Position numbers and translations under genes: made by a program. From positions 55,409-75,408 of the forward strand of contig JALAGF010006677.1 of NCBI GenBank assembly GCA_030167865.1: a stretch of 20,000 nt of DNA. Reading direction: 5' to 3'. This document shows, one piece after another, positions 5,625 through 20,000 of the stretch. Each line of letters opens with the position of its first letter. The stretch's first letter is position 1. The DNA is from Craspedostauros australis. Its lineage: Eukaryota. The notes beneath the pieces were generated by a model. It had not been told where the DNA came from. It worked only from the letters and a program-made list of their open reading frames with translations, and did not search any database.

Positions 5625-8600
5625 ATGGGGCGTCCACCGGGTTCGAAGCGGTACATCCGCGAAGATGCCAAGCAACCGGCTGCATCACCGGCAGCAAACG
5701 GAAAAGGAGGAAACGGTGGCGGAGGAAGGAGTGTTGCGCAAGACAAGGAGACCTATCCTCGAAGAAACCCTCGCTTGGGAACCAACTTTCAAACGAAGGT
5801 GCCAAGCTGTGTTGGCGGCAGCAGCTCTGCCACCGACGCAGATCAGGATGAAGGAGGACGCAGACCAGCGCCGGATCTCATGTCAGGAACGCACCCCTTT
5901 CGAACGGCGGAGGAGATGGATGTCATGAACGATGGCGTTGCTTCCAAGAGTGAGTGCAACCTACGAAACCGTTGAAGAAACGAAAGACAACCCAAGCATG
6001 GGAACGATGTCGTCTCGAACCATCATCATCATCATGATGGCTGTGACGACGTGGAAGGAGCAGCCCGTCCAAACGAGTGAGACGAATCATTCTCAAAGCA
6101 GATCATATCACATGCATGCGTGCAGCGACAGCCAATCCCTCGGCACAGGAGATGCTCCAAAGCAGATCCGTGCACAAGCGAACCTATCCATCACTTGCAA
6201 AGGATTGGTCATGATGAAGCATGCCACATCATCCAATCCAACTCAACCAAGTGACCGAGGGATCATTCTGCGAAGCAAGGGATTGGCTCGGCAGTACCAT
6301 GCATGGGAGAGACGGAAACTGCCGAAAGGATGGAGTTCGTGATGCTGCCAATCGATCCGTTCGCGCAGCTATCGCCCCCCTGCGGCCAAAACGTTGACTT
6401 CACTCACACTTGCCATCTTTGTTTGGACCATTGCTTGAACATGAACGGAATACCACCTTCCACACTTGCTCGCCTGCTTGCCGCACCATACTCACCATCC
6501 TCGCCTCCATCTCCTTCCATCATTCCATGCGGAACACCTGCTCTCAAAGCCAACGCAACAGGATCCTCTCCAGCCGGCACAAGAAGGACAACAGCGGACG
6601 AGGCGCTCAGAGGCATCGTTGTTGGTGATGGTGAACATGGTGGTCGTGTCGCGTGTCGGATTAGTCGACAAAATCAGTCGTCGATTCCAATGACTCAAAC
6701 ACGAACTGGTGGCATCCTCACACATTCCGCTGAAAACCATGTCCATCATCACCGCTTGCCACAACATGTCCACGAAACCTTTCTTTCTTCTTCTTCTTCT
6801 CTTTCGGCTGTAGCAACAACAGCAGCAACAACTGAAAGCGCATCTTCACATTCGAGTGACGGCGGCTTGGATCCAAGCAGACAGTTTGCAAAGTTCGTCC
6901 AACCCCTCTTCCAATCTTTCGACAGCCAACCAACACGAAGCGCTCATGATGTGACGGAAAGCGTGCAGCACATGATACGGCTGCATGCGCAAGCAACTCC
7001 AGCCAAGCGTAGTCGAGGTCCACGCGGTCGCAAGCGTAACGTGTGGGAGACCCAGCCGAAGTCCAATGGGATCGATGATCTGGAACAAGTGTGGCGACAG
7101 AAGCGAAGGCGGAATCTGCAACATCATCTCAATCAGCAGACCGGCTCGCAGGAGGATGACAGCTCCGCGCTGGCCTACTTGTGCGCATCGCATGGGGGTG
7201 ATGCGACGCAGGCAGAGCTTGCCACCATGGTACAGCTATTGGGAGGAAAAGGTAAGCATCTGGCGTGCACCCGTCCGTGTGTCTGAAGTCTGCTCCAACA
7301 ACTTTGGTTTTGTGACACTCTCTTTGAGATGGAAGGGGTGCGAGAATTAGAGTGTGTGCCCTATTCATTCTTCTGCAACGCACACCCACATGCGTATGTT
7401 ACTGGCATTCGTCCACATATTCACCTCCTCTGCGCTTCGTTCATATATTCCTTCATTCCTTCATCCATCTCGAGCAGCATCCAAAACGAGGAAACTACGG
7501 GAGAGGAGGCGCTGGGACGAAGGAATCAAGTTGCCACTCACATCGTCGGAGTCATGGAGAATACGTTACGACAATCACCACGAATCATTCTTGGGGCAGG
7601 TGCAGGAGGATGGCGCGTCTCCCAGATATCGTGCTTGGCCCACTGGGAAGGCTCAGGCAGGGACGGACTCTTTCTTCATGGATATGGAGTCGGCGGATGC
7701 AGAGGAAAGGAAGGGCGCGTGGAGATCAGTGCATGCATTCGGAGCAGCGCTGGAGCACCAATTGAACGATGAGTCCACCGCGTCTCAGCAGAAGCCGTTC
7801 CTTTCCACAGCCATGACGTACATACAGACAGCCCGCGATTTGCCCATTCCAGAATCCTGCTTTGGAACAAATCACGTCATGGTGGAAGAAGTGGCATCCT
7901 GCATGCATTCCATCCTCGATCGCATCGACGACCTACGCGATGCCCGATGCCGAATACTGGACATGCTGTACGACGAAGACTGCGAAGGAGTTGATGTGGA
8001 TGCTCTTCAAAAGTGCATGAACCAAAACATCAAGTCACTCCCACTCCATCTCGATGAGGAACACGCCATCACGCAGTTTTGCGACTCCGTGAAGACCTGG
8101 GAACGCAAGGTAGCAGCAACACTTGATGCAAAGCAATCCACAGGCAAAGGAAAGTCGTCGAACAAGACGGAGAGAGACGATTTGGGAAACGCTCAACGGT
8201 TGCTGGCAGAAGCGCGTATGCACGCCTTTCGTTCAAAAGCCGTGGTGCAGCTCGAATCGAGGGTGGAGAAGGCCTGCAAGATCCGAGATAGAATCAACGA
8301 ATGGGACATCGCCTGCAATATTAGCAGCGGCAACAACGTCAACAGCAGCAACGGCAATAGTAACAGCAACAAATGGTCCATCAAAAACATCGCCGGTGTT
8401 ATCCGGGAGGCCAATCGATTGAAATTCATGTTCCCCGTGCTCAGTAAGCTCACCCAGATGCATAGAGAATGCGAATGCTGGATCGACCGAGCCAACATCG
8501 CCATCCGGTCCAGAATATCGCTGTCAGAAATCAAGCAACTGGTGGCGCGTGGTCAGGAAATGCCCGTCGACGTCTCGGACTACATCGAAAAGCTCGTGGC

Positions 8601-11600
8601 CCGAGCAGACGACGCCGACGAATGGATAAGCCATCTGGATGGTGTCGTGCCCGTGTCGAAATTCAACACCCAGAATGCCAAGATCCTGATATGGATGCAG
8701 GAAGTTCGTAAGGCTCTGAATGATGGTTCACACGGCGTCCTCCACGAAATGGCATCCAAGGGGAGCAGAATACCTGTCGAAGTCGACCTCGTCAAGTTGC
8801 TCCAGGCAGAACTCGATGCCAGGAGCTGGACAGGCAAGGCGAGGAAATGGATTCCAACAGAAGGCGCTGAAGGCGTCGTGTACCGCAGAGGCAAAATCGA
8901 CGATCTGAGGGATCACATCACGAAAGCGGATACCATCCGCGATCGGCTGCCCCTGCCAACCTCCATCCGTTCGAAGTGGACGATGGATGGAGAGGAGGAG
9001 CTGTGCGCGATCATAGACGCAGCAGACGAATGGTACGAGAAGCACCAAGCCTTTCTGGAGGGCGACAACCGAAGGGCGCGGCGGAGGCACCGGTTGTCCA
9101 TCACGAAACTGAAGGAGATCAGCCAAGAGCTGAATGACATTTTTGTGAATGTGGGCAACATCGGCATGAAAGTTACCAGAATTCAAGCGCAAGCCGAGGC
9201 CTGGTGCAATGAACATTCTTCGGTGCTCACGGCGTGCGGTATCATGCCGGCCAATATCGCCATGGACAGCAACGACGGTAAGGAGAAGGACATCTCCAGC
9301 AACAACAACGGCAACAAGGTCAGCGTCGATGAAATTTCAACCGCCGTCACGTCTGCCGCATCGGACCTTCCTGTGGATTTGGACGAGGCGATGGAACTGG
9401 AGGCAATCTTAAAGAATGTCAAGGAGTGGCAGCAAACCTCGTCCATCTTGGCACCCCTTCGCGCCAACAAGCGGCAAGGCAAGATTTCCCGGCAGCGTTT
9501 CACCATGCAGGACCTGGAGGATGCAATCGACCAAGCACCTTCTCTTCCCGTCAACACGGTGGAAGAAGTTGGTCGCCTTCAAGAGCGATTGCATGCCATT
9601 GCTCAATGGAAGGAAGCCGTTGGTGAACAGTTCAAGAAGCTTCCCAGGGGCTTCGATCAGCTCAGAGAGGCCATCAACGATACTTTTGGGTCAGCTCATG
9701 ACTTCGACCAAAGCAAGGTGTGCACGCCAAGTGACAAGGCTGCTACTGCTGCTGCTACTGCTGACAACATGGAGACACAGGACGCTTCTCTCAAATCTAC
9801 CCGTGCCCCCGAAACAGCAACAGAAGCAGCATCATCAGCGGCAGTGACCGCGACTGTGACAAATGCCGAAAACAACGTCAACAGCGCCAATGGCAACAGC
9901 AGCGGCAACACAACCACTGACGACATGGAGACCAGCAATGGTGAAGGTGACGACGATGACGACGACGGTGATGGGGCTGGCGAGACCAATGTGCACAGCA
10001 TGATCCGTTCGCTTGTTGATGGCAGCTATCAAACTTCTGTGACAACAGTCGAGAGCGATGCCATCGAACTCCTGGAGAATGTGTCCAACTGGTGCATCCG
10101 ATCGCTCAAGTACTTGAATTCACCGCGTGAGATCTTTGACAAGCGCTACTTTGGTGCGTTCGATCGATTCGTCAAGGAGGGCAAAGCTCTGCTCAAGAAG
10201 TCCAAGAGCTCCATCGGAAATGATGGGAAGAAATCTGGCAACTGCAACGGTGCTGACAACGGCCTTGCGACAGAAGCATTCGCGCAAGAAACCAAGCTCC
10301 GCGAGAGCTGGGGTGCAATCTTGGATGATCAGCTCAAGCGGTTGGCGCATTTGGATGCGGAACGAAAGAAGTTCGTCATCTGGTGCAAGGTTGCCAGCCA
10401 AAGGATGGCCGACGTCAAACGTCTCACCATCGAGAGGCTGCGAGACCTCGACACCGCAAGTCGCGATTTCCCAGCAGGTATGTAAGAAGTGACATTGTGG
10501 AGATTGTAAGGGCCTGGTGGTCGGGTGGTATGATTATTCTTGTTGTGATATTTGTGCAGTTTGGAAAATGGGATGAGAATCCAACATCCTGCAGTTCTGG
10601 ACGTCATTCTCATCAGCTCACTCTTCTTGTATGTGTTGGTACCATACGATGCTGTATCTTGCCTACTACCACTCCCCCACTGCTCCACAAATACCGGTGC
10701 GGAATTCGTTTGATTCATTCAGTCACTGATATCGTGCAAAAGGTTCGCGCGCTTTCTGTCAAGGCAACTGCGTGGATCAACAAGGCAAAATCCTTGCTCG
10801 AAAGCGACGACAAGATGTCCATATACGACGCAAAGATCATCTTGGAGGCTGGAGAGAAGCTGAAGGTCAAATCGGCGGAACTGGAGACGCTGCAGGCCGC
10901 ATTCAAGGAAGTCCGCGCGTGGTCAACTCGATTTCGAAAGTGCAACCTCGAGGATGACTCTCCCGATATGGCCGAGATCCAGTCCTTGATCGCGGAACAC
11001 GACAAGCTGAAGCTGGTGATGCCAGACGAACTGGACGAACTCAAGCAGGCCATGAAGGTCTATTGCGTGTGCCGACGATCGCACGAGGGCTTCATGATTG
11101 GATGCGATCAGTGCGACGAGTGGTACCACGGTGCGTGCATCGGGATTACAGAATCGAGAGCGGATCGATATGAAAAGTTCGTCTGTATGCGATGTTCCGT
11201 CAAGAAGGTATTCACCACAAGCTGCACAAACGCCGTGAGCATCGTGCGGAAGTGGACAAGCTGGAAAGAGTTGAAGAAACGCCGGCAGGCGGAGGCGCAA
11301 CGGCATCAACGCAAGACACGGAAGGAGATGAAGGACATCGAAACCATGAAGAAGAACTTGGAAGACGCCGAGGCACAACTAGTCGCACTGTCGCGAAGAA
11401 TAGAAATGAGCGAAGGGGAACCAAACACACCACAATCCGCGGGACCGGCAGAGGTAGTAGTGCAGCTGGCTGTCCCGCCAGCGAGTGAGCCAATGATCGT
11501 GGGCGAGCCTGATACAGGAAAATTGACATCACCACCACTGCCGCCACCGCAGACAACAAGCGCAGGTGACGCAGCGCTTGCCCTTGTGCCAGCACAGCAG

Positions 11601-14600
11601 AGCAATTGTCAAGTCGCCCCGCAGGTTGCACAAGGCTGCCACGGGAGCGCCACGATCATGACGCCTGCAGAAGCAACGAAGGGCAGCGTGCAAGCGCCAG
11701 ACGAGATTCAATCATCGCCAGGAACGGCAGCAGAAGCCGCTGCGACTGCAAATGGCGTAGCGTCACTGACGACCATGGCACCGACTCCGGCCAAAGCCGC
11801 AGCGGCACCGGAACTCGTGGGATCACCAACAGCAACAGATCCACAGGCAGTAGCAGCCGCTGCTGTAGATGGAGCTGTAGTCGGAGGTGCAGCGCCGACA
11901 ACAACGCTGGCACCATCACTAACAACAACAACAACAACATCATCGCCATCAACAGCAGCAGCGAAGGCAGAGACAACGGCATCTCCTGACAAAGCAAATA
12001 TCCAAGTTAAAGTAAACGACGCGCCATCAGCACCAAAAACTCTGAAGGAGCTGAAGAAGGAACAAGCGACGTTGGAAAAGAAATTGGAGAAGCTGAAGAA
12101 GAAGCGAGCAGACAGCATCAAACGACTAGCTGACTACGAAAAGATGAGCGAGGGTGCGAGAGCGAAAGAAACCGATGAGGACAAGAACGCTGCAGCTATC
12201 CGCAGATGGTGCATCCGTGTGCGATCTCTCGTCCTCATCCCGTCATCCACGGAGCTCGTGGAGGCGGCACGTCCACTGCAGAATGGAACTCTCTCTGGCG
12301 CGATGCTCATGGTGATGAGCGACTCGCTCAAACTCGGAGTGTCACGTTTTGCTGACGTGAAGATGATGCTAAATTGGTTCAAGTGCATCTGCTGGAGTTC
12401 GATGACGATGTCCGTCCTCACTAGGATGCCAACACTGGCCGAAGCCAACAGGATCATTTCGCTGGCCTCCTCCCTCCAGCTCCCCGACGAAAGAGCTCTG
12501 CGAACTCTGAAATCTATCGTGCAGCGAGTCAACTACTGGCACCAACGGGCATCGAAGGCAATCGCACCGAAGGGCGGATCCACGAAGTCCATCAACATGG
12601 TTCTGCTTCGGCAGCTCATGACGGATTACTCGGCGTTGCCCATCGCCCTACCCGACATCAGCAGATTCGAAATGGCGGTCAATGACAGAGGCGCTCGGTA
12701 TTGCATCTGTGGTGGACCGAAGAATGGCACAGCAATGATCGGATGCAAGAAGTGCAGATCTTTGTATCACGCCAACTGCATTGAATCGCACAAGGGCAGT
12801 GCGGTCAAGAACGCAAAGGAATGGATTTGTTACGGCTGTGCGGGACAGAAGATGCCTTCGATGAAGATTCCAAGGCCAGACATCTTCCCACCGCAAGACG
12901 AGCCAGACTTCAAGTTCGACGCCGCGAAGATCGATTGGACCATGCTGCATGCACCGAACCCTACCGAACTGTGGCCGCCATTTGGGTTGTTTGGAGCCGA
13001 GAAGGCGGTCGAAGCCCTTGGTCACGATGCCTCCAGATACCCGGATGATATTGCGGTGCTGCATGAGAAAGCCGTTACCAGCGATGAATCTCCTAGCATC
13101 CGGCTTTCGGAAGGATCAGTGCCGCTATGCCTCGTTGTCAACCCACACGGAAACAGCCCACAGCGCCAACAGAATCAACAACAGCCTACGCAGCAACAGC
13201 CGCAGCAACAACAACAGTCGCATATTCCAATAGCAGCTGCGGCGCACTCAGTCCATCCGACGGTGAGAGTGCTAACTCCGCCAGCAGCTACGCCAGTGCT
13301 GCCAATCTCAGTGGCACGAGTAGCTGTGCCGCGAGGGGGAGCGTTGGTTGGGGCACCACACGCAGTCGCAACCCAGCTGCCAGTTGTCACGTCGACGATC
13401 GTCCAAATGACGGCATCATCATCTGCAGCAGCAGCATCAACCATTGCAGGGGCAGTAGTTGCGACACCAGTGCCAGCAGCCGTACCAACGGTACGAGCAG
13501 CTTCAGGTGTGGTAGCAACCCCACCAGGACCAACAGTATCAGCCGTGCCAACAGCGATGCCAAGGCTTCAACTTTCTGCCACACAGGCACAGCCACTGCA
13601 CCTGCAGATGAGAGTTGCGCAACCACCAGAGGCAGTGAAAAGCGATGCGTTCACTATCTCCCTCGCCACAAAGGCGGCTCAACCAATCCAGCCTCCCTTG
13701 CCCACGACAAACCAAACCCAAGGCCAGACCATCGGATCCACATGGGTCCAAATCAGATCTCCTGGCAACGCGGCACCGCCAACCTTGACCCCTCCGAACA
13801 TCGCAGTCGTGAACGTGCCGGCATCGGGTGCGAGCCCGCAGGTTGTCCGCCAAACACAGGCCGCCCCGGTAGACTACGTGAAGGCAACCAGCGCACTTCC
13901 AGCGCCTGTTCCTGCTACCGCAGTAGCTGCGGAGACTGCCGCAGCCAGTCGCAGCCGGCACATACTTACAGCTGCTGCTCCGGAAGTTCATGGGGGTGCT
14001 GTTGCTGCTGGAGCGAGAGTGAATTTGAAGGCTGACTCCGAGCAATCATCAAGATTGGCAACGACAGCAACACAACCACCAACAGCCATGGAGATCGATA
14101 CGAGCAATGGCGGCCCAGTTTCACAAGGTCCCCTGGTCACTTCTCCGGGTGTTGCCAAGGAAGATGGTGAAGTGAATGAGTTGGCGGTAAACCCATTCAC
14201 CGCACCAGTGGATAATTCTATCGGCACCGTCACAGATATTATCACAGCAGACAAGACACAGCCGGAAGGCACCCTGCAGCACCAGCGACAACTGAAGCCG
14301 GAAGACTCCGACGTTTACACAGCACAGCAGATCTCAAACACTAGTACGAATGGCGATGTCGGTCTGCGCAGGCCATTGCAATCTGCAGCATGTCCGCTGT
14401 CGGATGACATGCCTATGCTAACAAACGGGTGCAATGTGGTCCACGATCAAATGGATGTGGACTGTCGTGAGATCGAGCCTGCGGGCACCCAGAATCCAAC
14501 CACGCCGCCGATGGATGTGAAGTGCGTTGCATGCAAGGTTGACGATCTCACGGAGGGGAGCATCATCACCGCAACGGGAGCGGTGACGAGTACAACAACG

Positions 14601-14822
14601 TCATCAGCCTCGAACGACAGCAACGACCTCAGCGTGGATGAGACCGAAAGCAGAATGAACGTTGACAACGAGACTGCATCACACGGTCAGTACCACAACC
14701 AGCAACTGGCCGGAACGACCGAAGCCAACGGCGTCGCAGGACAGGCATCCGTCGTGTCGCTGCAGCTACCGCAGGTTCTGCCAGGTGTTGTGGTGGCCAC
14801 CAAGACGAACCATGGGATTTAG
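5625..14822 (+). CDS. Large (~2700 aa) chromatin-associated protein: ELM2-like motif, PLU-1-like helical region, two PHD fingers, low-complexity tail. Proposed exons 5625-5949, ~6574-7251, 7478-10477, 10723-14822
   Basis: Phase-consistent introns: 7252 GTAAGC..CAG 7477 and 10478 GTATGT..TTCAG 10722 (both phase 1). The first intron, 5950 GTGAGT..TCCTCTCCAG 6573, is less certain (alternative AG at 6561). Summed exons = 8103 nt (2701 codons). ELM2-like 'PRLGTNFQTKVP' at 5769-5804. Recurrent W..kA..l / i..L...g..lpv helical repeats resemble KDM5 PLU-1. Confidence 0.75.
11061..11195 (+). other. PHD finger 1
   Basis: YCVCRRSHEGFMIGCDQCDEWYHGACIGI...FVCMRC: C4HC3 pattern with Y, M and W at the aromatic-cage positions of H3K4me3-binding PHDs. 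Confidence 0.92.
12699..12839 (+). other. PHD finger 2
   Basis: YCICGGPKNGTAMIGCKKCRSLYHANCI...WICYGC: C4HC3 pattern, with L in place of the cage W. Confidence 0.88.
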
Positions 14823-15262
14823 AATCGGGAGGTGAATTTCGCACTGTTTCTTCACATTCGTGCGCATGTTGGTGCCTTTTTCCAACACGGTTCCATAGAA
14901 ATACGAGCTAGAATACTACTACCAGTATGTATGCGGTGATCTTCTCATCTTCTTCCTGAACTCTCGTAGCTTGTACATCGGCGACGACAAGGAAGAAGAG
15001 TCGCAGTCCCACGGTATGAGGACGCCTGTTCTCAGTATGTTGCGGTAGCGTGTGCAACATCATGTTTAGCTCATGTTGCTTCGTCATACAAAACGTCTCC
15101 TTGCATCAACAGCATCACGATACACATGGCCATGCGGCTGCCAAGTCGTCACAGGAGCTGCATCTTCTGCTCCATCCACTATCAGCCGCACGCACGGACT
15201 ATCGTCAAGGTGCACCGTTCTTGCATGGAATACTCGTATGTGCTCTAGAGTAGTATTATGCG

Positions 15263-16904
15263 TTATGCTATCGACGTCTCTCTCACTTCCGCAGGTTCCA
15301 CGAGAGAATACTCGTGATTGACAAAGTCTCTGTCGAACATGAATGACCGATATGTGTCTGGTCCGCCAGGGAATCCCCCTTTTCGCAAGCCGTTGGCAGC
15401 ATCGTAGATCTCCTGCATGGCGTTGGAAGCGTACGTAATTAGGATGAAGATGGGGTGAGGAATGGCGGACAATGGCGCAAAAGCCAGGGGAAACGACAGC
15501 AAGCAACGACAGCGACAACAAAGACAATGACTCCATTGTGCCCACAAGAACCACCACCACAAGCGTACGTACCTTGTTGACCGAGATGTAACCTTCCATG
15601 TCTGCGTCGTAAATCCCCGCCGTCTTCGCCAGGTCTCTGCAATAATCCCATTGGGCGTTGCCCAAGTAATGCGTGTCTTGGATGCGGCCGTTGGGCACGC
15701 CCCCGCAGCTGACAGAGTCCTGTTGCGCCGCATTCAGACGATCTTCCACAGATGGCAAGACCGATGCAGCGGTCCATGTGGCGCACACGGCCTCGGCTTG
15801 CAATTCGAAGAAGGGGAAGGGAAGGATGGAATGCGGCAAGCCGACGAATGCCAAATTGGGATGGTGGGCGTGCCACAGCTGTCGGTAAAGAGGTTTGACA
15901 CGGCGTTCGCCGTCTGGGAATTGGACGTCCAGGTTGCTGTCGTCGTTGAGGAATGGGAATTCGTAGTCGTATCCGGAACACATAATGATGCGGTCGATTG
16001 TGTTCGGTGGGATCGTGATGCCGGTCTCCTTGTCACCAAACTGTATGGAGCCGTCTTGCAGCACCTGCGTCGTTTTTGGGACCCACGCGCCATTGTCCGC
16101 GGTCTCTGGTTGTCCATCCACCAGCGGCGGACAGGTGGAATCGGATAAGTAGACGTAATCGGCGTGCTCCATAATCTCACGAGTCAGGTCCGCTCCACTG
16201 GCACGGGCGCCGATGCAAAGGACCGTTTCGGATTGGAACATCGCGGGGTCGTCGTATTCGATGGAGTGCATGACCTTGCCCTGGAAGTATTGGTCCAGTC
16301 CTGGAATGCGCGGGCTAGATGCTTTGGCATAATGGCCGTTGCAAATCAAGACGGCGTCAAACACATCGCTCTGCACATTGGAATCTTCTTCGCCAGTACT
16401 CGTCAGCTGTTGTTTTCCATGTTCATGTCCATGCTGCTGGTCTTGCTGCTGGTCTGTCTCGCTGACCGTCCATGAGAGTCTGATCTTGGGCCATGTCTCT
16501 GTGTCTGGTGACAGCGCCGACGGTTGGTCTGACAGGACAGTCAGCTGACGCACGGAATGGCCATGATGAATGTACCGCCCCAGCCGGAAGGAATCGCGGT
16601 AGCTCTCCAGATAGCGCGCAACATCGCGATGCGTGACGAAGCTGCCGCCATCCTGCGCTTCGAGCCAGGGCAGTTCGCGGTACCCCATGATCTCCTTGGG
16701 CAAGTTGGTGCGCAGACCTCGGTAGACGGGATCGCTGGTCGAATTGGAGACGTAGTTCCAGACGCCGCCCGTCTTGCGCGCATTCTTTTCAAAGACCTTG
16801 GGAGATGCCAGGCCGCTGCGCGAGACGACGCGCGCCGCCGCCAGACCGGATGCCCCGGCGCCGATTATGGCGATCTTCGGCTGCTGCGATGATGTCCGCA
16901 TCAT
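15263..16904 (-). CDS. Flavin-containing monooxygenase (class B FMO); exons 16904-15573 and 15412-15263, 493 aa
   Basis: FAD motif GAGASG, GGVW, 'YRGLRTNLPKEIM', 'FDAVLICNGHY', FMO motif FQGKVMHSIEY, NADPH motif GARASG, and 'CSGY'. A phase-0 intron 15572 GTACGT..TGCAG 15413 joins VNK|EIYDAA. Confidence 0.92.
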
Positions 16905-16920
16905 CGCTGACAGCTTTCAC

Positions 16921-17066
16921 TGTACTTCTTACCTCTTTACTAATCGTATTAATCAAATACTGGTCGGAGATTGTCCTCGGACAACTCACAATAAAACAAC
17001 AAGAGCTCCGACCAGGGCACGCAACAACGGGCCAATCAGTCTCAGTAGTTACTTGCATGTTTGACA
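16921..17066 (+). repeat. Putative 5' LTR (left end uncertain: TGT at 16921 or TGTC at 16972)
   Basis: Ends in ...TTGACA immediately before the PBS and contains AATAAA at 16990-16995. The 3' LTR is outside the window, so the left end cannot be confirmed. Confidence 0.55.
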
Positions 17067-17080
17067 GATTAAGAGTCGTG
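17067..17080 (+). other. Primer-binding site complementary to the tRNA-Lys(CUU) anticodon arm
   Basis: GATTAAGAGTCGTG. Its reverse complement CACGA-CTCTTAA-TC reads as 5-nt stem strand, CU-CUU-AA loop and 2 nt of the returning stem. Confidence 0.75.
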
Positions 17081-17120
17081 ATATCACCAACAAGCTTATC
17101 ACTATAACACCACTTCTACC

Positions 17121-18497
17121 ATGACGAGAACGATCAACAACAAAGCAGTAGCCGGATTCATCAAGGAGCTTGTCGGGCTGAACGACCAACAGATGTCTTT
17201 CATCACAAGCACTCTTGGACGCATCGACAATGCCATCCGCCTCACTGACCAAGAAATCGTGGACTCTTTGGTTCACTCCCCATCTCTCAACGCCGTCAAC
17301 ATCGGTAACGTCATGCGCATCTTCGAATACGCACGTCACAACGCCGTCGACGACACAACGAACTGGGAAGCCATCCATGACTTCAACGAAGGTCGCAACT
17401 ACAAGCTACCAACAATCGACTCGTCCGTGGCAATCTCGACGACCAAACTTCGCCTCGAGATGGACATGAAGCAAGCGGCCGCAGCCGTGCAAGCCAACGA
17501 GATGGTTGTACGCTCGCCGCAACGCGGAGGCGCAAGCACGCGCTCTCCATCAACACCTACCAACTGGCGCTATGACAAGGTCTCCATCCCAGACCCTCTC
17601 CCTTTCTCCGGTCTGAACGAAGACTGGCGTGATTGGAAGATATCCTTCGAGCGGTCCATGGTGACCACTCGATTCTCCAAGTACATGGACCGGGAGCGTC
17701 CAGCTGGATACGAGCAACACGTCGACCGACAGTTCCATTCGGTCATCAACGCATTGACCTATCAGGGGGACGCCGATTTCCTTGTCTCAGCTCACCGCAA
17801 CAGTGGACACGATGCATGGCAAGCATTGATTCAGCTCTACGAATCCGAGGAGAATCAGGCGCAAACAGTCGCCGAGCAAGAAGTCTACCTGACCCAGCTC
17901 TCCTTCGACGGATCCGAGCCATTCACCAAGTACGTCAACGCGTTTTCCAAATCCCTTCAAGTCATGAAGGACAACGGCAAGGAGATGACGGAAGAGCACA
18001 TCATTGCGCAATTCTTCCGCAACATCCGTGATGAGCGCTACGTAAGCGAGGTGTCTCGTCTCCGCAAGGAGAAGCTCACCTTCGCTGAGATCCGCAAGGA
18101 ACTCATGGAACATGATCGTGTGCTGACCAACATCGAAGCACATCAATCTCCTCGGCGTAACCGTCGACTTCAGACCAAGCAGGGCGGACGCAACGACCGC
18201 AAGCGACCACACGATGGCCAATCCGGCGAACGCAAATCCGCACCCGCATTTCGGCTGTCGGACAGCGTCTTCAGACGCCTCCCAGCCTGCCAACAGGCAC
18301 TCCTTGTGGAGGCCACGCGGTACTACCGCAAGAATGGGAAGAACATCGACGATGAGACCCTCAAGAAACTCAAGCCAGCGGAGTTCGCACAGAACCTCCA
18401 GCTGCCGCTCACACGCAGAGCAGCCAAGCGCGACCGAACCCACGGGACCCCGACTCGCGACGGCAAGAAACGCGGATCATACGGCGACAGCTCTTGA
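17121..18497 (+). CDS. gag: Gag (458 aa) of copia-type element
   Basis: Copia gag-like motifs 'PFSGLNEDWRDWK', 'SGHDAWQALIQLYE' and 'FTKYVNAF', plus a basic C-terminal tail. No CCHC knuckle. Confidence 0.85.
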   Translation: MTRTINNKAVAGFIKELVGLNDQQMSFITSTLGRIDNAIRLTDQEIVDSLVHSPSLNAVNIGNVMRIFEYARHNAVDDTTNWEAIHDFNEGRNYKLPTIDSSVAISTTKLRLEMDMKQAAAAVQANEMVVRSPQRGGASTRSPSTPTNWRYDKVSIPDPLPFSGLNEDWRDWKISFERSMVTTRFSKYMDRERPAGYEQHVDRQFHSVINALTYQGDADFLVSAHRNSGHDAWQALIQLYESEENQAQTVAEQEVYLTQLSFDGSEPFTKYVNAFSKSLQVMKDNGKEMTEEHIIAQFFRNIRDERYVSEVSRLRKEKLTFAEIRKELMEHDRVLTNIEAHQSPRRNRRLQTKQGGRNDRKRPHDGQSGERKSAPAFRLSDSVFRRLPACQQALLVEATRYYRKNGKNIDDETLKKLKPAEFAQNLQLPLTRRAAKRDRTHGTPTRDGKKRGSYGDSS

Positions 18498-20000
18498 CAA
18501 TCAACGACGGGCACACTTCGCCGTCAGTCTGAGATTGCCATCCGTGTCAAGCCCCGCGACTGTAGGGGGGAGACGCGTACAGCTGCAGAGGGACGGCCCA
18601 AGCGTGCACGCATTGTGGAACCCCGAGTGCCGCCGTCGAGCATAACCCACCCGCATGTCGAACACTGTCTTCGCAGGGCAAGAGTGATGGACGGTAGCCA
18701 GGGCTACATCGTATTGGACTCAGGGGCGGACGGCGACATCGTACATGCATCCGGATGGGTGGTGACCCGAAAACACACGCAGACTTTCCAAGCCCGCGGG
18801 GCGACGATGGAGTCACAAATCGAGACCTTCCAGATGGTCGACGCGGTGGCAGCATATGAATCACCCACAGGGGATGTGATTCTGATCAAGGCAAACTTCG
18901 TGGCGCTTGACGAGCACCCAAGGCAGACAGAGTCATTGATGAATACTCATCATATGCGCGCGTCCGGACTGAACGTCTACGATCGCCTCATTCAACACCA
19001 AGGGCAACAGCGCATCGCGTCAGGGGGGATCAGTATACCACTGGCCAATCATGACGGCAACACTCTGCGCATACCCATACGAAAACCGACGGCTCACGAG
19101 CTCGATAACACTACTAAGCATATCACGATATGCGACAGGCACCAACGACTTCGACGTAACAACCAACGGGTTGACTTCGGCGAAGTGTTCAAGCATCTCC
19201 CACAACAGGTGGTTGAGAAGACCATGGCGGCATCAACCCAGCTGGCGGACAAACCGATAGAGGCCGAGTCAAGACTCATCCCACGGCAATACCGTACACA
19301 GCGCGCAGGGATATTGCTACCACACCGACTTCACGGAAGAGTCGACACCGATCCATTCTTTTCCACCATCCAGTCGATCCGACACTACAAATGCTTTCAG
19401 CTGTTCATACACAGCGAATCCAAGCTGATTTGGACCAAGCCACTCCGACGGGAGGCGATGGCGCCAGGGGCGCTAACCGACTTCATCCTCAACGTTGGGG
19501 CACCAGACCTGCTCATTTCCGACAATTCACAAGTGCAGTCGGGCAAGGCATGGAAGGCGGTAACATCCAAGCACATGATCAAGCATTCGTTCACAACGCC
19601 AATGAACCAGAACCAGAACCGAGCGGAACGCGCTATCGGAGACATCAAGCGGCACGCATACCAACTCATTTGGGCGGCATCTGCGCCACTCGAATTCTGG
19701 TGCTACGCGGTACAGCACGCTGTCGACGTTTGGAACTTCACGGCCAAGGCCAGCATCCAATGGAAGACGCCGATCGAACTTGCTCGGGGCAACACACCTG
19801 ACATCTCTATGTTTCGTTTCACTTTCTTCCAACCGGTATGGTTCTTCGAACCGATGACGAAGTTCCCAGCTCATCCCTTCAAGCCAGGATATTTCCTGGG
19901 AATCGCGTGGGATCATGGCGATCCATTTACATACCACATCTGGTCACCGAAGGCCGACGACATCAAGAAAGGCACAGCACTCGTCCGGAACATCGTGAAA
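18498..20000 (+). CDS. pol: Pol (aspartic protease + integrase core; 3'-truncated by window), in frame with gag
   Basis: Translated by hand: stop-free from 18498 to 20000. Protease 'YIVLDSGAD' (DSG 18717-18725). Integrase 'VDTDPFF' (D 19350), 'LISDNS' (D 19521), 'QNRAERAIG' (E 19626), then 'FWCYAV', 'TPDISMFRF' and 'GYFLGIAWDHGDPFTYHI'. Confidence 0.92.

Follow-up and report, generated by a model that had tools for sequence, protein, structure and literature searches.

A candidate UGA readthrough signal between gag and pol of a divergent Ty1/copia-type retrotransposon

The element and the stop between its gag and pol

The 20,000-nucleotide stretch of Craspedostauros australis DNA analysed here (the window; contig JALAGF010006677.1 of assembly GCA_030167865.1, positions 55,409 to 75,408) ends within a long terminal repeat (LTR) retrotransposon. 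What the window holds of it is the 5' half of a Ty1/copia-type element of a divergent lineage, cut off inside the integrase-like region. Its gag and pol share one reading frame that is interrupted by a single UGA, and the six bases that follow this stop, CAA UCA, fit the CAR-YYA consensus of type I leaky-stop signals. Based on the sequences of the element and its relatives, we put at roughly 70% the probability that the stop is a site of programmed UGA readthrough in a type I CAR-YYA context. The frame runs on the forward strand from 17121 to 20000 and comprises 960 codons with one stop. The open reading frame (ORF) that begins at the gag ATG occupies 17121-18497, of which 17121-18494 is coding, and its 458 codons specify a product of 458 amino acids. 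The junction reads ...GGC GAC AGC TCT TGA CAA TCA ACG..., with the TGA at 18495-18497 and CAATCA at 18498-18503, and 501 residues lie open beyond the stop. An earlier reading of this DNA made from its letters alone (the sequence-only reading) had described a gag ending in TCT TGA CAA TCA and, after it, 501 stop-free codons through protease and integrase to the end of the window; the first is seen at 18495-18503 and the second is confirmed by translation.

The assignment of the upstream part as a copia-type Gag comes from a match of the 458-residue product to the Pfam family Retrotran_gag_2 (E 4.5e-07; 29.9 bits, cut-off 27). Its N-terminus resembles those of three full-length relatives (L001, L002 and L005), and the last conserved gag motif in the alignment with relatives, FRLSDSVFRRLP ... 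RYYRKNGKNIDDETL at 18249-18362, is common to relatives in which gag and pol are fused. The 501 residues after the stop matched no Pfam family, even at E 10. Nevertheless, a phmmer search with the 960-residue read-through translation against 1.84 billion representatives returned 2061 proteins at E <= 0.001, of which 76 reached E <= 1e-30, and among the matches listed the matched stretches lie mostly downstream of the stop. A protease motif, LDSGADG, is present at 18714-18734 and is followed by an integrase-like region. Ty1/copia elements have the order gag, protease, integrase and reverse transcriptase, which the window element matches as far as it goes; the reverse transcriptase domain RVT_2 is seen in relatives and would lie beyond the window end here. 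The pol part retains all invariant columns of an alignment of relatives (A2, used in place of A1, which was too diverse for the scan), and the copy shows no CpG decay (observed/expected 1.14).

To place the stop relative to the folded domains, we turned to an AlphaFold2 model of the 251 residues that follow it, built on an alignment of 8 sequences. Residues 1-65 have a predicted local distance difference test score (pLDDT) below 50 and are unstructured in the model, and residues 66-212 are folded. The folded part corresponds to a predicted protease domain at 18693-19133 with its catalytic DSG at 18717-18725. Foldseek searches with the modelled fold gave the protease of XMRV as the best match and also listed those of HIV, FIV, MPMV and EIAV, all of them weak (E 0.06-1). 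The stop lies 74 codons upstream of the catalytic Asp. It is thus not at a sharp domain edge, and in the model it falls in an unstructured stretch.

The predicted unstructured linker that follows the stop (18498-18692), delimited from the model and from the linkers of fused relatives, holds LRRQSEIAIRVK at 18516-18551. This peptide, of the form RR, a few residues and then V-x-V/I-x-L/I-K, is conserved in the window element and in L001-L005, L007, L010, P0004 and P0154. It starts 7 codons past the stop in surroundings that are otherwise of low complexity and unstructured, and the AlphaFold2 model does not place it in the protease fold. Beyond the protease, the integrase-like region extends from 19176 to 20000, where the window end cuts it, and carries the motifs RVDTDPF (19338-19358), ISDNSQ (19515-19532) and NRAERAIG (19617-19640) but yields no Pfam match. 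Across 18498-20000 the family rve went unrecognised, and no HHCC zinc-finger pattern was noticed before the integrase core. This protease-integrase lineage is poorly represented in domain libraries, and domain-based transposon annotation would miss the element.

Upstream of gag, 216 bases (16905-17120) separate its ATG from the start codon of an FMO-like monooxygenase gene, and any 5' LTR, primer-binding site and leader of the element must fall here. The element and the FMO-like gene (15084-16904, reverse strand) stand head to head. Over its final ~170 codons, the ORF of this gene resembles read-through into non-coding sequence, and the nearest Atlas cluster of its protein is commonest in Bacillariophyta, a weak hint as to the host, which is eukaryotic and probably diatom-like. 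Farther upstream, two ORFs in different frames, 7354-10485 and 10383-14822, overlap; both match PLU-1 and the second also has PHD fingers. They probably represent one KDM5/JARID-like gene (7354-14822) with an intron or frameshift near 10383-10485, in a region rich in AAC/AGC/CAA repeats.

The context of the stop

Among all 960 codons, CARYYA occurs in frame just once, as the CAATCA directly behind the stop; shuffling the codons yields 2.2 such hexamers per 960. The main alternative account of the TGA is that the element is a crippled copy of a single-ORF family, in which one nonsense substitution, most simply CGA to TGA, chanced to fall before CAA TCA. We regard this as unlikely, although it draws on several observations among the relatives that are weighed below. 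It would need a joint coincidence: a stop could arise in the frame through 313 different single substitutions, of which about 9% lie in the linker (codons 416-506) and 69 produce TGA, and the new stop would in addition have to land before the sole in-frame CARYYA, for which the product of codon frequencies is 0.0023 per position. The sequence-only reading had argued that a random nonsense mutation was unlikely to hit both the gag/protease boundary and the hexamer. These figures uphold the argument for the linker and the hexamer, but its picture of a boundary has to be relaxed to that of a stop within a linker.

An empirical control is provided by related elements. A metagenome scan recovered 32 loci whose protein segments are 26-59% identical to the window, and we collected every in-frame stop located in, or at most 60 codons from, their homologous frames. 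CARYYA follows 3 of these 236 stops, and all three are TGA CAATCA at one homologous site of a single family. The other 233, which mostly reflect decay, include none with the hexamer, a result that also speaks against chance nonsense as the source of the window's stop. The coincidence reckoned for a mutation applies equally to the idea that the TGA arose as an error of sequencing or assembly, since one wrong base would have had to place a stop immediately ahead of the sole CARYYA. Nothing specific was found in favour of such an error and we consider it highly improbable, the least credible of the explanations considered here.

No significant structure is evident in the RNA downstream of the stop. 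The fold of 18495-18620 has a z-score of -1.67 relative to shuffles, 14 of 200 of which fold at least as well, as judged with a tool that does not predict pseudoknots. Because type I signals need no structure, the lack of a downstream fold is neutral for readthrough. We also considered whether UGA could be a sense codon in the host and rejected this idea: two other long ORFs of the window end in TGA, and treating TGA as sense lengthens frames only unspecifically.

A stop that is native to the element would not by itself establish readthrough, and pol could instead be expressed through an internal start such as Met 18687, through a shorter RNA made by a promoter at the junction, or by splicing that removes the stop. 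There is precedent in the Ty1/copia element Tca2 of Candida albicans, for which the UGA and its flanks gave no readthrough in yeast and a minor promoter at the junction is described (PMC2194720). In the window element, 10 codons separate Met 18687 from the catalytic Asp downstream of it, and this Met is at about the start of the modelled protease fold, which would suit an internal start. However, the linker motif at 18516-18551, conserved in fused relatives, sits between the stop and this Met, which argues against initiation there. Splicing fares no better: 25 in-frame GT..AG pairs would remove the stop, but none has a strong donor and all of them delete conserved gag residues. Furthermore, we know of no obvious route by which a Pol unfused to Gag would enter particles. 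On this evidence we judge an alternative mode of pol expression to be very unlikely and favor programmed readthrough at the UGA.

Relatives of the element and the stops they carry

Of the relatives found, P0151 is the closest, with 56% identity over 432 columns. The window element and P0151 pair, in a tree built on the protease-integrase region, with an approximate likelihood ratio support (SH-aLRT) of 100, within a clade of 16 rows that also has a support of 100. RVT_2 lies downstream of the homologous integrase-like region in the four relatives examined for it (P0151, P0003, the pol of L011, and L002), and a match to rve was detected only in L011, where it is weak (E 0.0086).

The result that most shifts our estimate in favor of a programmed stop comes from another family in this 16-row clade (SH-aLRT 100), represented by four metagenome copies (L006, L009, L021 and L029) with 79-89% DNA identity. 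All four carry an in-frame TGA at the same site in the linker between protease and integrase. CAA TCA follows it in three of the four copies and CAA ACA in L009 (L006:336-344, L009:1099-1107, L021:2074-2082 and L029:1219-1227), and in the first five codons beyond the shared TGA all four agree at every third position. Between L006 and L009, synonymous divergence (dS) is ~1.0 and the ratio of nonsynonymous to synonymous divergence (dN/dS) is 0.07 in the 110 codons upstream of the TGA and 0.10 in the 170 codons downstream. When the calculation is repeated in the two shifted frames, the corresponding ratio of proportions of differences (pN/pS) is 1.8 and 3.0. Purifying selection on both sides of the TGA at a dS of about 1 implies that the stop was kept while the frame downstream was under selection. 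Each of the four copies has private stops or frameshifts and they are therefore decaying insertions rather than a host gene. The shared TGA thus has the look of a functional stop that is bypassed, and likely marks a programmed readthrough site, if at an unusual junction. Since this family belongs to the clade of the window element, members of one clade use the same nine bases, UGA CAA UCA, at another junction. That these nine bases are conserved and apparently bypassed in a related family counts against a chance nonsense mutation in the window element. Whether this clade of divergent copia elements, probably of diatoms or other marine protists, has placed UGA-CAA-UCA more than once, at gag/protease in the window element and at protease/integrase in the family of four, is in our view an evenly balanced question; at both junctions the signal would govern how much structural protein is made relative to enzymes.

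A second relative bears on the arrangement rather than on the hexamer. The contig of L011, whose 100-base ends are identical, represents one closed repeat unit, 5948 bases long. Within L011:100-5799, a gag of 505 codons is followed by TGA GGA GCA (stop at 1615-1617) and a pol of 1393 codons, and the element is otherwise intact. None of the five members of the L011 clade has an uninterrupted gag-pol ORF. The L011 stop has no known leaky context and its downstream RNA fold is not significant (z -0.52). As far as can be read from sequence, the arrangement in L011 favours a programmed stop. We considered treating the L011 and window stops as homologous positions and rejected it, as the RR motif adjacent to the stop in L011 matches the proximal CLRRARV of the window (18666-18686), not the distal motif.

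The contigs of L002, L005 and L011 all have identical ends, of 93-123 bases, and form closed units of 5737-5948 bases, which represent either LTRs collapsed by the assembler or one-LTR circles. Only ~250-350 bases of each unit are non-coding, so that LTRs in this group are very short, and a short LTR is plausible for the window element too.

Several observations weigh against a programmed stop, and most of them favour the account of a crippled copy of a single-ORF family. The single ORF is the commonest arrangement: among the 44 relatives that reach the protease site, 21 are uninterrupted ORFs with at least 250 residues before it. L001, L002 (1814 codons) and L005 (1820 codons) are uninterrupted gag-pol ORFs, and L010 is open across the junction. 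In the clade of the window element 9 of the 16 rows are single gag-pol ORFs, which makes this the usual condition. P0002 aligns straight across the window stop with a sense codon, and P0151 starts at the protease motif, so that its junction is not visible. Chance nonsense does occur among these elements: L003 and L007 have a TAA inside conserved gag motifs, a location that led us to reject these two stops as programmed. A third case is possible in L009, where TGA CAA GTC in the gag/protease linker (L009:322-324) stands opposite CGA CAA GTC in L029, two sequences from which the direction of change is undecidable. The window TGA is itself one CpG transition from CGA, and CGA is in use as an Arg codon, occurring 14 times in the frame, with an Arg-rich peptide around the stop. 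The evidence on the element's own family is a single copy, and no sister copy supports conservation of the stop; the LTRs are undelimited, and the 3' half of the element and its 3' LTR lie beyond the window.

Further attempts to find the stop in close relatives were negative. There is no second copy of the element within the window, a search with gag in a set of 5.8 billion proteins gave no match at E <= 1e-5, and scans of viral contigs and genome contigs found no DNA relative. We also tried to detect recurrent stops from the start positions of predicted proteins and set this approach aside, as the histogram has no sharp peak.

Altogether, the hexamer statistics, the family with the stop at the protease/integrase junction, and L011 lend indirect support to the proposal of the sequence-only reading that this element makes Gag-Pol by programmed readthrough. 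Against its extension to the whole lineage, 21 of 44 relatives and most of the window's clade are single ORFs. That the element's family natively carries the stop, that readthrough takes place in this host and how efficient it would be are inferences.

A model for Gag-Pol synthesis and its known counterparts

We envision a scenario in which most ribosomes terminate at the UGA (18495-18497) and release the 458-residue Gag. CAA UCA would weaken termination, so that a few per cent of ribosomes decode the UGA with a near-cognate tRNA, which supplies the residue inserted there. These ribosomes would go on in frame through the linker, protease and integrase and then, past the window, through the reverse transcriptase. 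The outcome would be small amounts of a Gag-Pol fusion.

How in-frame stops between gag and pol are bypassed in the few copia elements known to have them is poorly understood, and the window element offers a simple mechanism in the form of a textbook six-base leaky context. A sister family in which these nine bases recur, conserved, at a different junction suggests a reusable module that retroelements place where the output of downstream domains is to be lowered. If this is correct, no retrotransposon before these would have been shown to use a type I hexamer signal, and the signal would prove to work with ribosomes of this eukaryotic branch; CAR-YYA readthrough, so far documented in plants, in yeast-like variants and in human cells, would thereby extend to another major eukaryotic branch. 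The model also matters for the annotation of algal genes and transposons, in which such ORFs are now split or called pseudogenes.

The comparison that lies closest in mechanism is with the tobamoviruses. The identification of stop-CAR-YYA as the leaky signal of the tobamovirus type, made in the sequence-only reading, agrees with the accounts in PMC3542737 and PMC4132726. The hexamer CAA UCA is an exact fit to CAR-YYA and, as in the viral (TMV-like) signal, no downstream structure is required. Natural type I cases are described as generally UAG and from plant RNA viruses (PMC3542737), whereas the window has a UGA at the gag/pol junction of a retrotransposon and is known here from sequence alone. 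The difference in stop codon need not be an obstacle, as CARYYA is reported to promote reading through UGA and UAA as well (Firth and Brierley, PMC3542737). In human cells UGA-CARYYA gave ~15% readthrough in one reporter context, with roughly equal performance of UGA and UAG and with each of the six bases contributing, and the related motif CARNBA is active in yeast (Loughran et al., PMC4132726).

Gammaretroviruses resemble the window element in having an in-frame stop between gag and protease and in making small amounts of Gag-Pol (bioRxiv 10.1101/2022.12.06.519325). Their class of signal depends on a downstream pseudoknot (PMC4132726), whereas the window RNA folds no better than shuffles. 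Among retrotransposons, the fission-yeast elements Tj1, Tosmo1-3 and Tcry1 have an in-frame TGA at the Gag-Pol junction in a conserved context, GAA TGA CT, and exist beside the single-ORF relatives Tf1 and Tf2 (bioRxiv 10.1101/2022.12.06.519325). They share with the window element a junction TGA with a short context, conserved in their case, but belong to another superfamily, Ty3/gypsy, and the context is a different one. The soybean element SIRE1, a Sirevirus, is a member of the copia superfamily and is cited as using stop suppression, but its stop lies between pol and an env-like ORF (PMC3414828).

For diatoms, the CoDi elements of Maumus et al. 2009 provide a comparison by description only: they are divergent copia elements with the order protease, integrase, reverse transcriptase and with short LTRs (from 153 bases), as the window element may have. 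In most putatively active diatom copia elements of that study, gag and pol are separated by at most one stop or frameshift, and its main text names no recoding mechanism. A literature search judged by titles and the beginnings of abstracts found nothing on readthrough in diatom retrotransposons, and the only transposable-element case found in the literature on CARYYA is a report of the motif's absence (PMC3441728).

That case is one of two copia elements whose layout matches the one described here. The sequence-only reading had listed a single ORF, frameshifting and splicing as the ways in which copia elements express pol. This background is incomplete, as gag-UGA-pol is known from Tca2 (PMC2194720) and from VdLTRE5 of Verticillium dahliae (PMC3441728), whose authors call the organisation very rare. 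Tca2 has gag and pol in the same frame with a single UGA between them (PMC2194720), and the window element shares precisely this arrangement with both. The signals differ. Tca2 is described as having a possible pseudoknot and no CARYYA (PMC3441728), whereas the window has the canonical hexamer and no significant structure, and VdLTRE5, from a fungal host, likewise has no CARYYA according to its authors, who searched for it (PMC3441728). What the present analysis adds to these precedents is therefore not the gag-UGA-pol organisation of a copia element, which was already known, but its combination with a canonical type I context, together with a related family that keeps the same signal.

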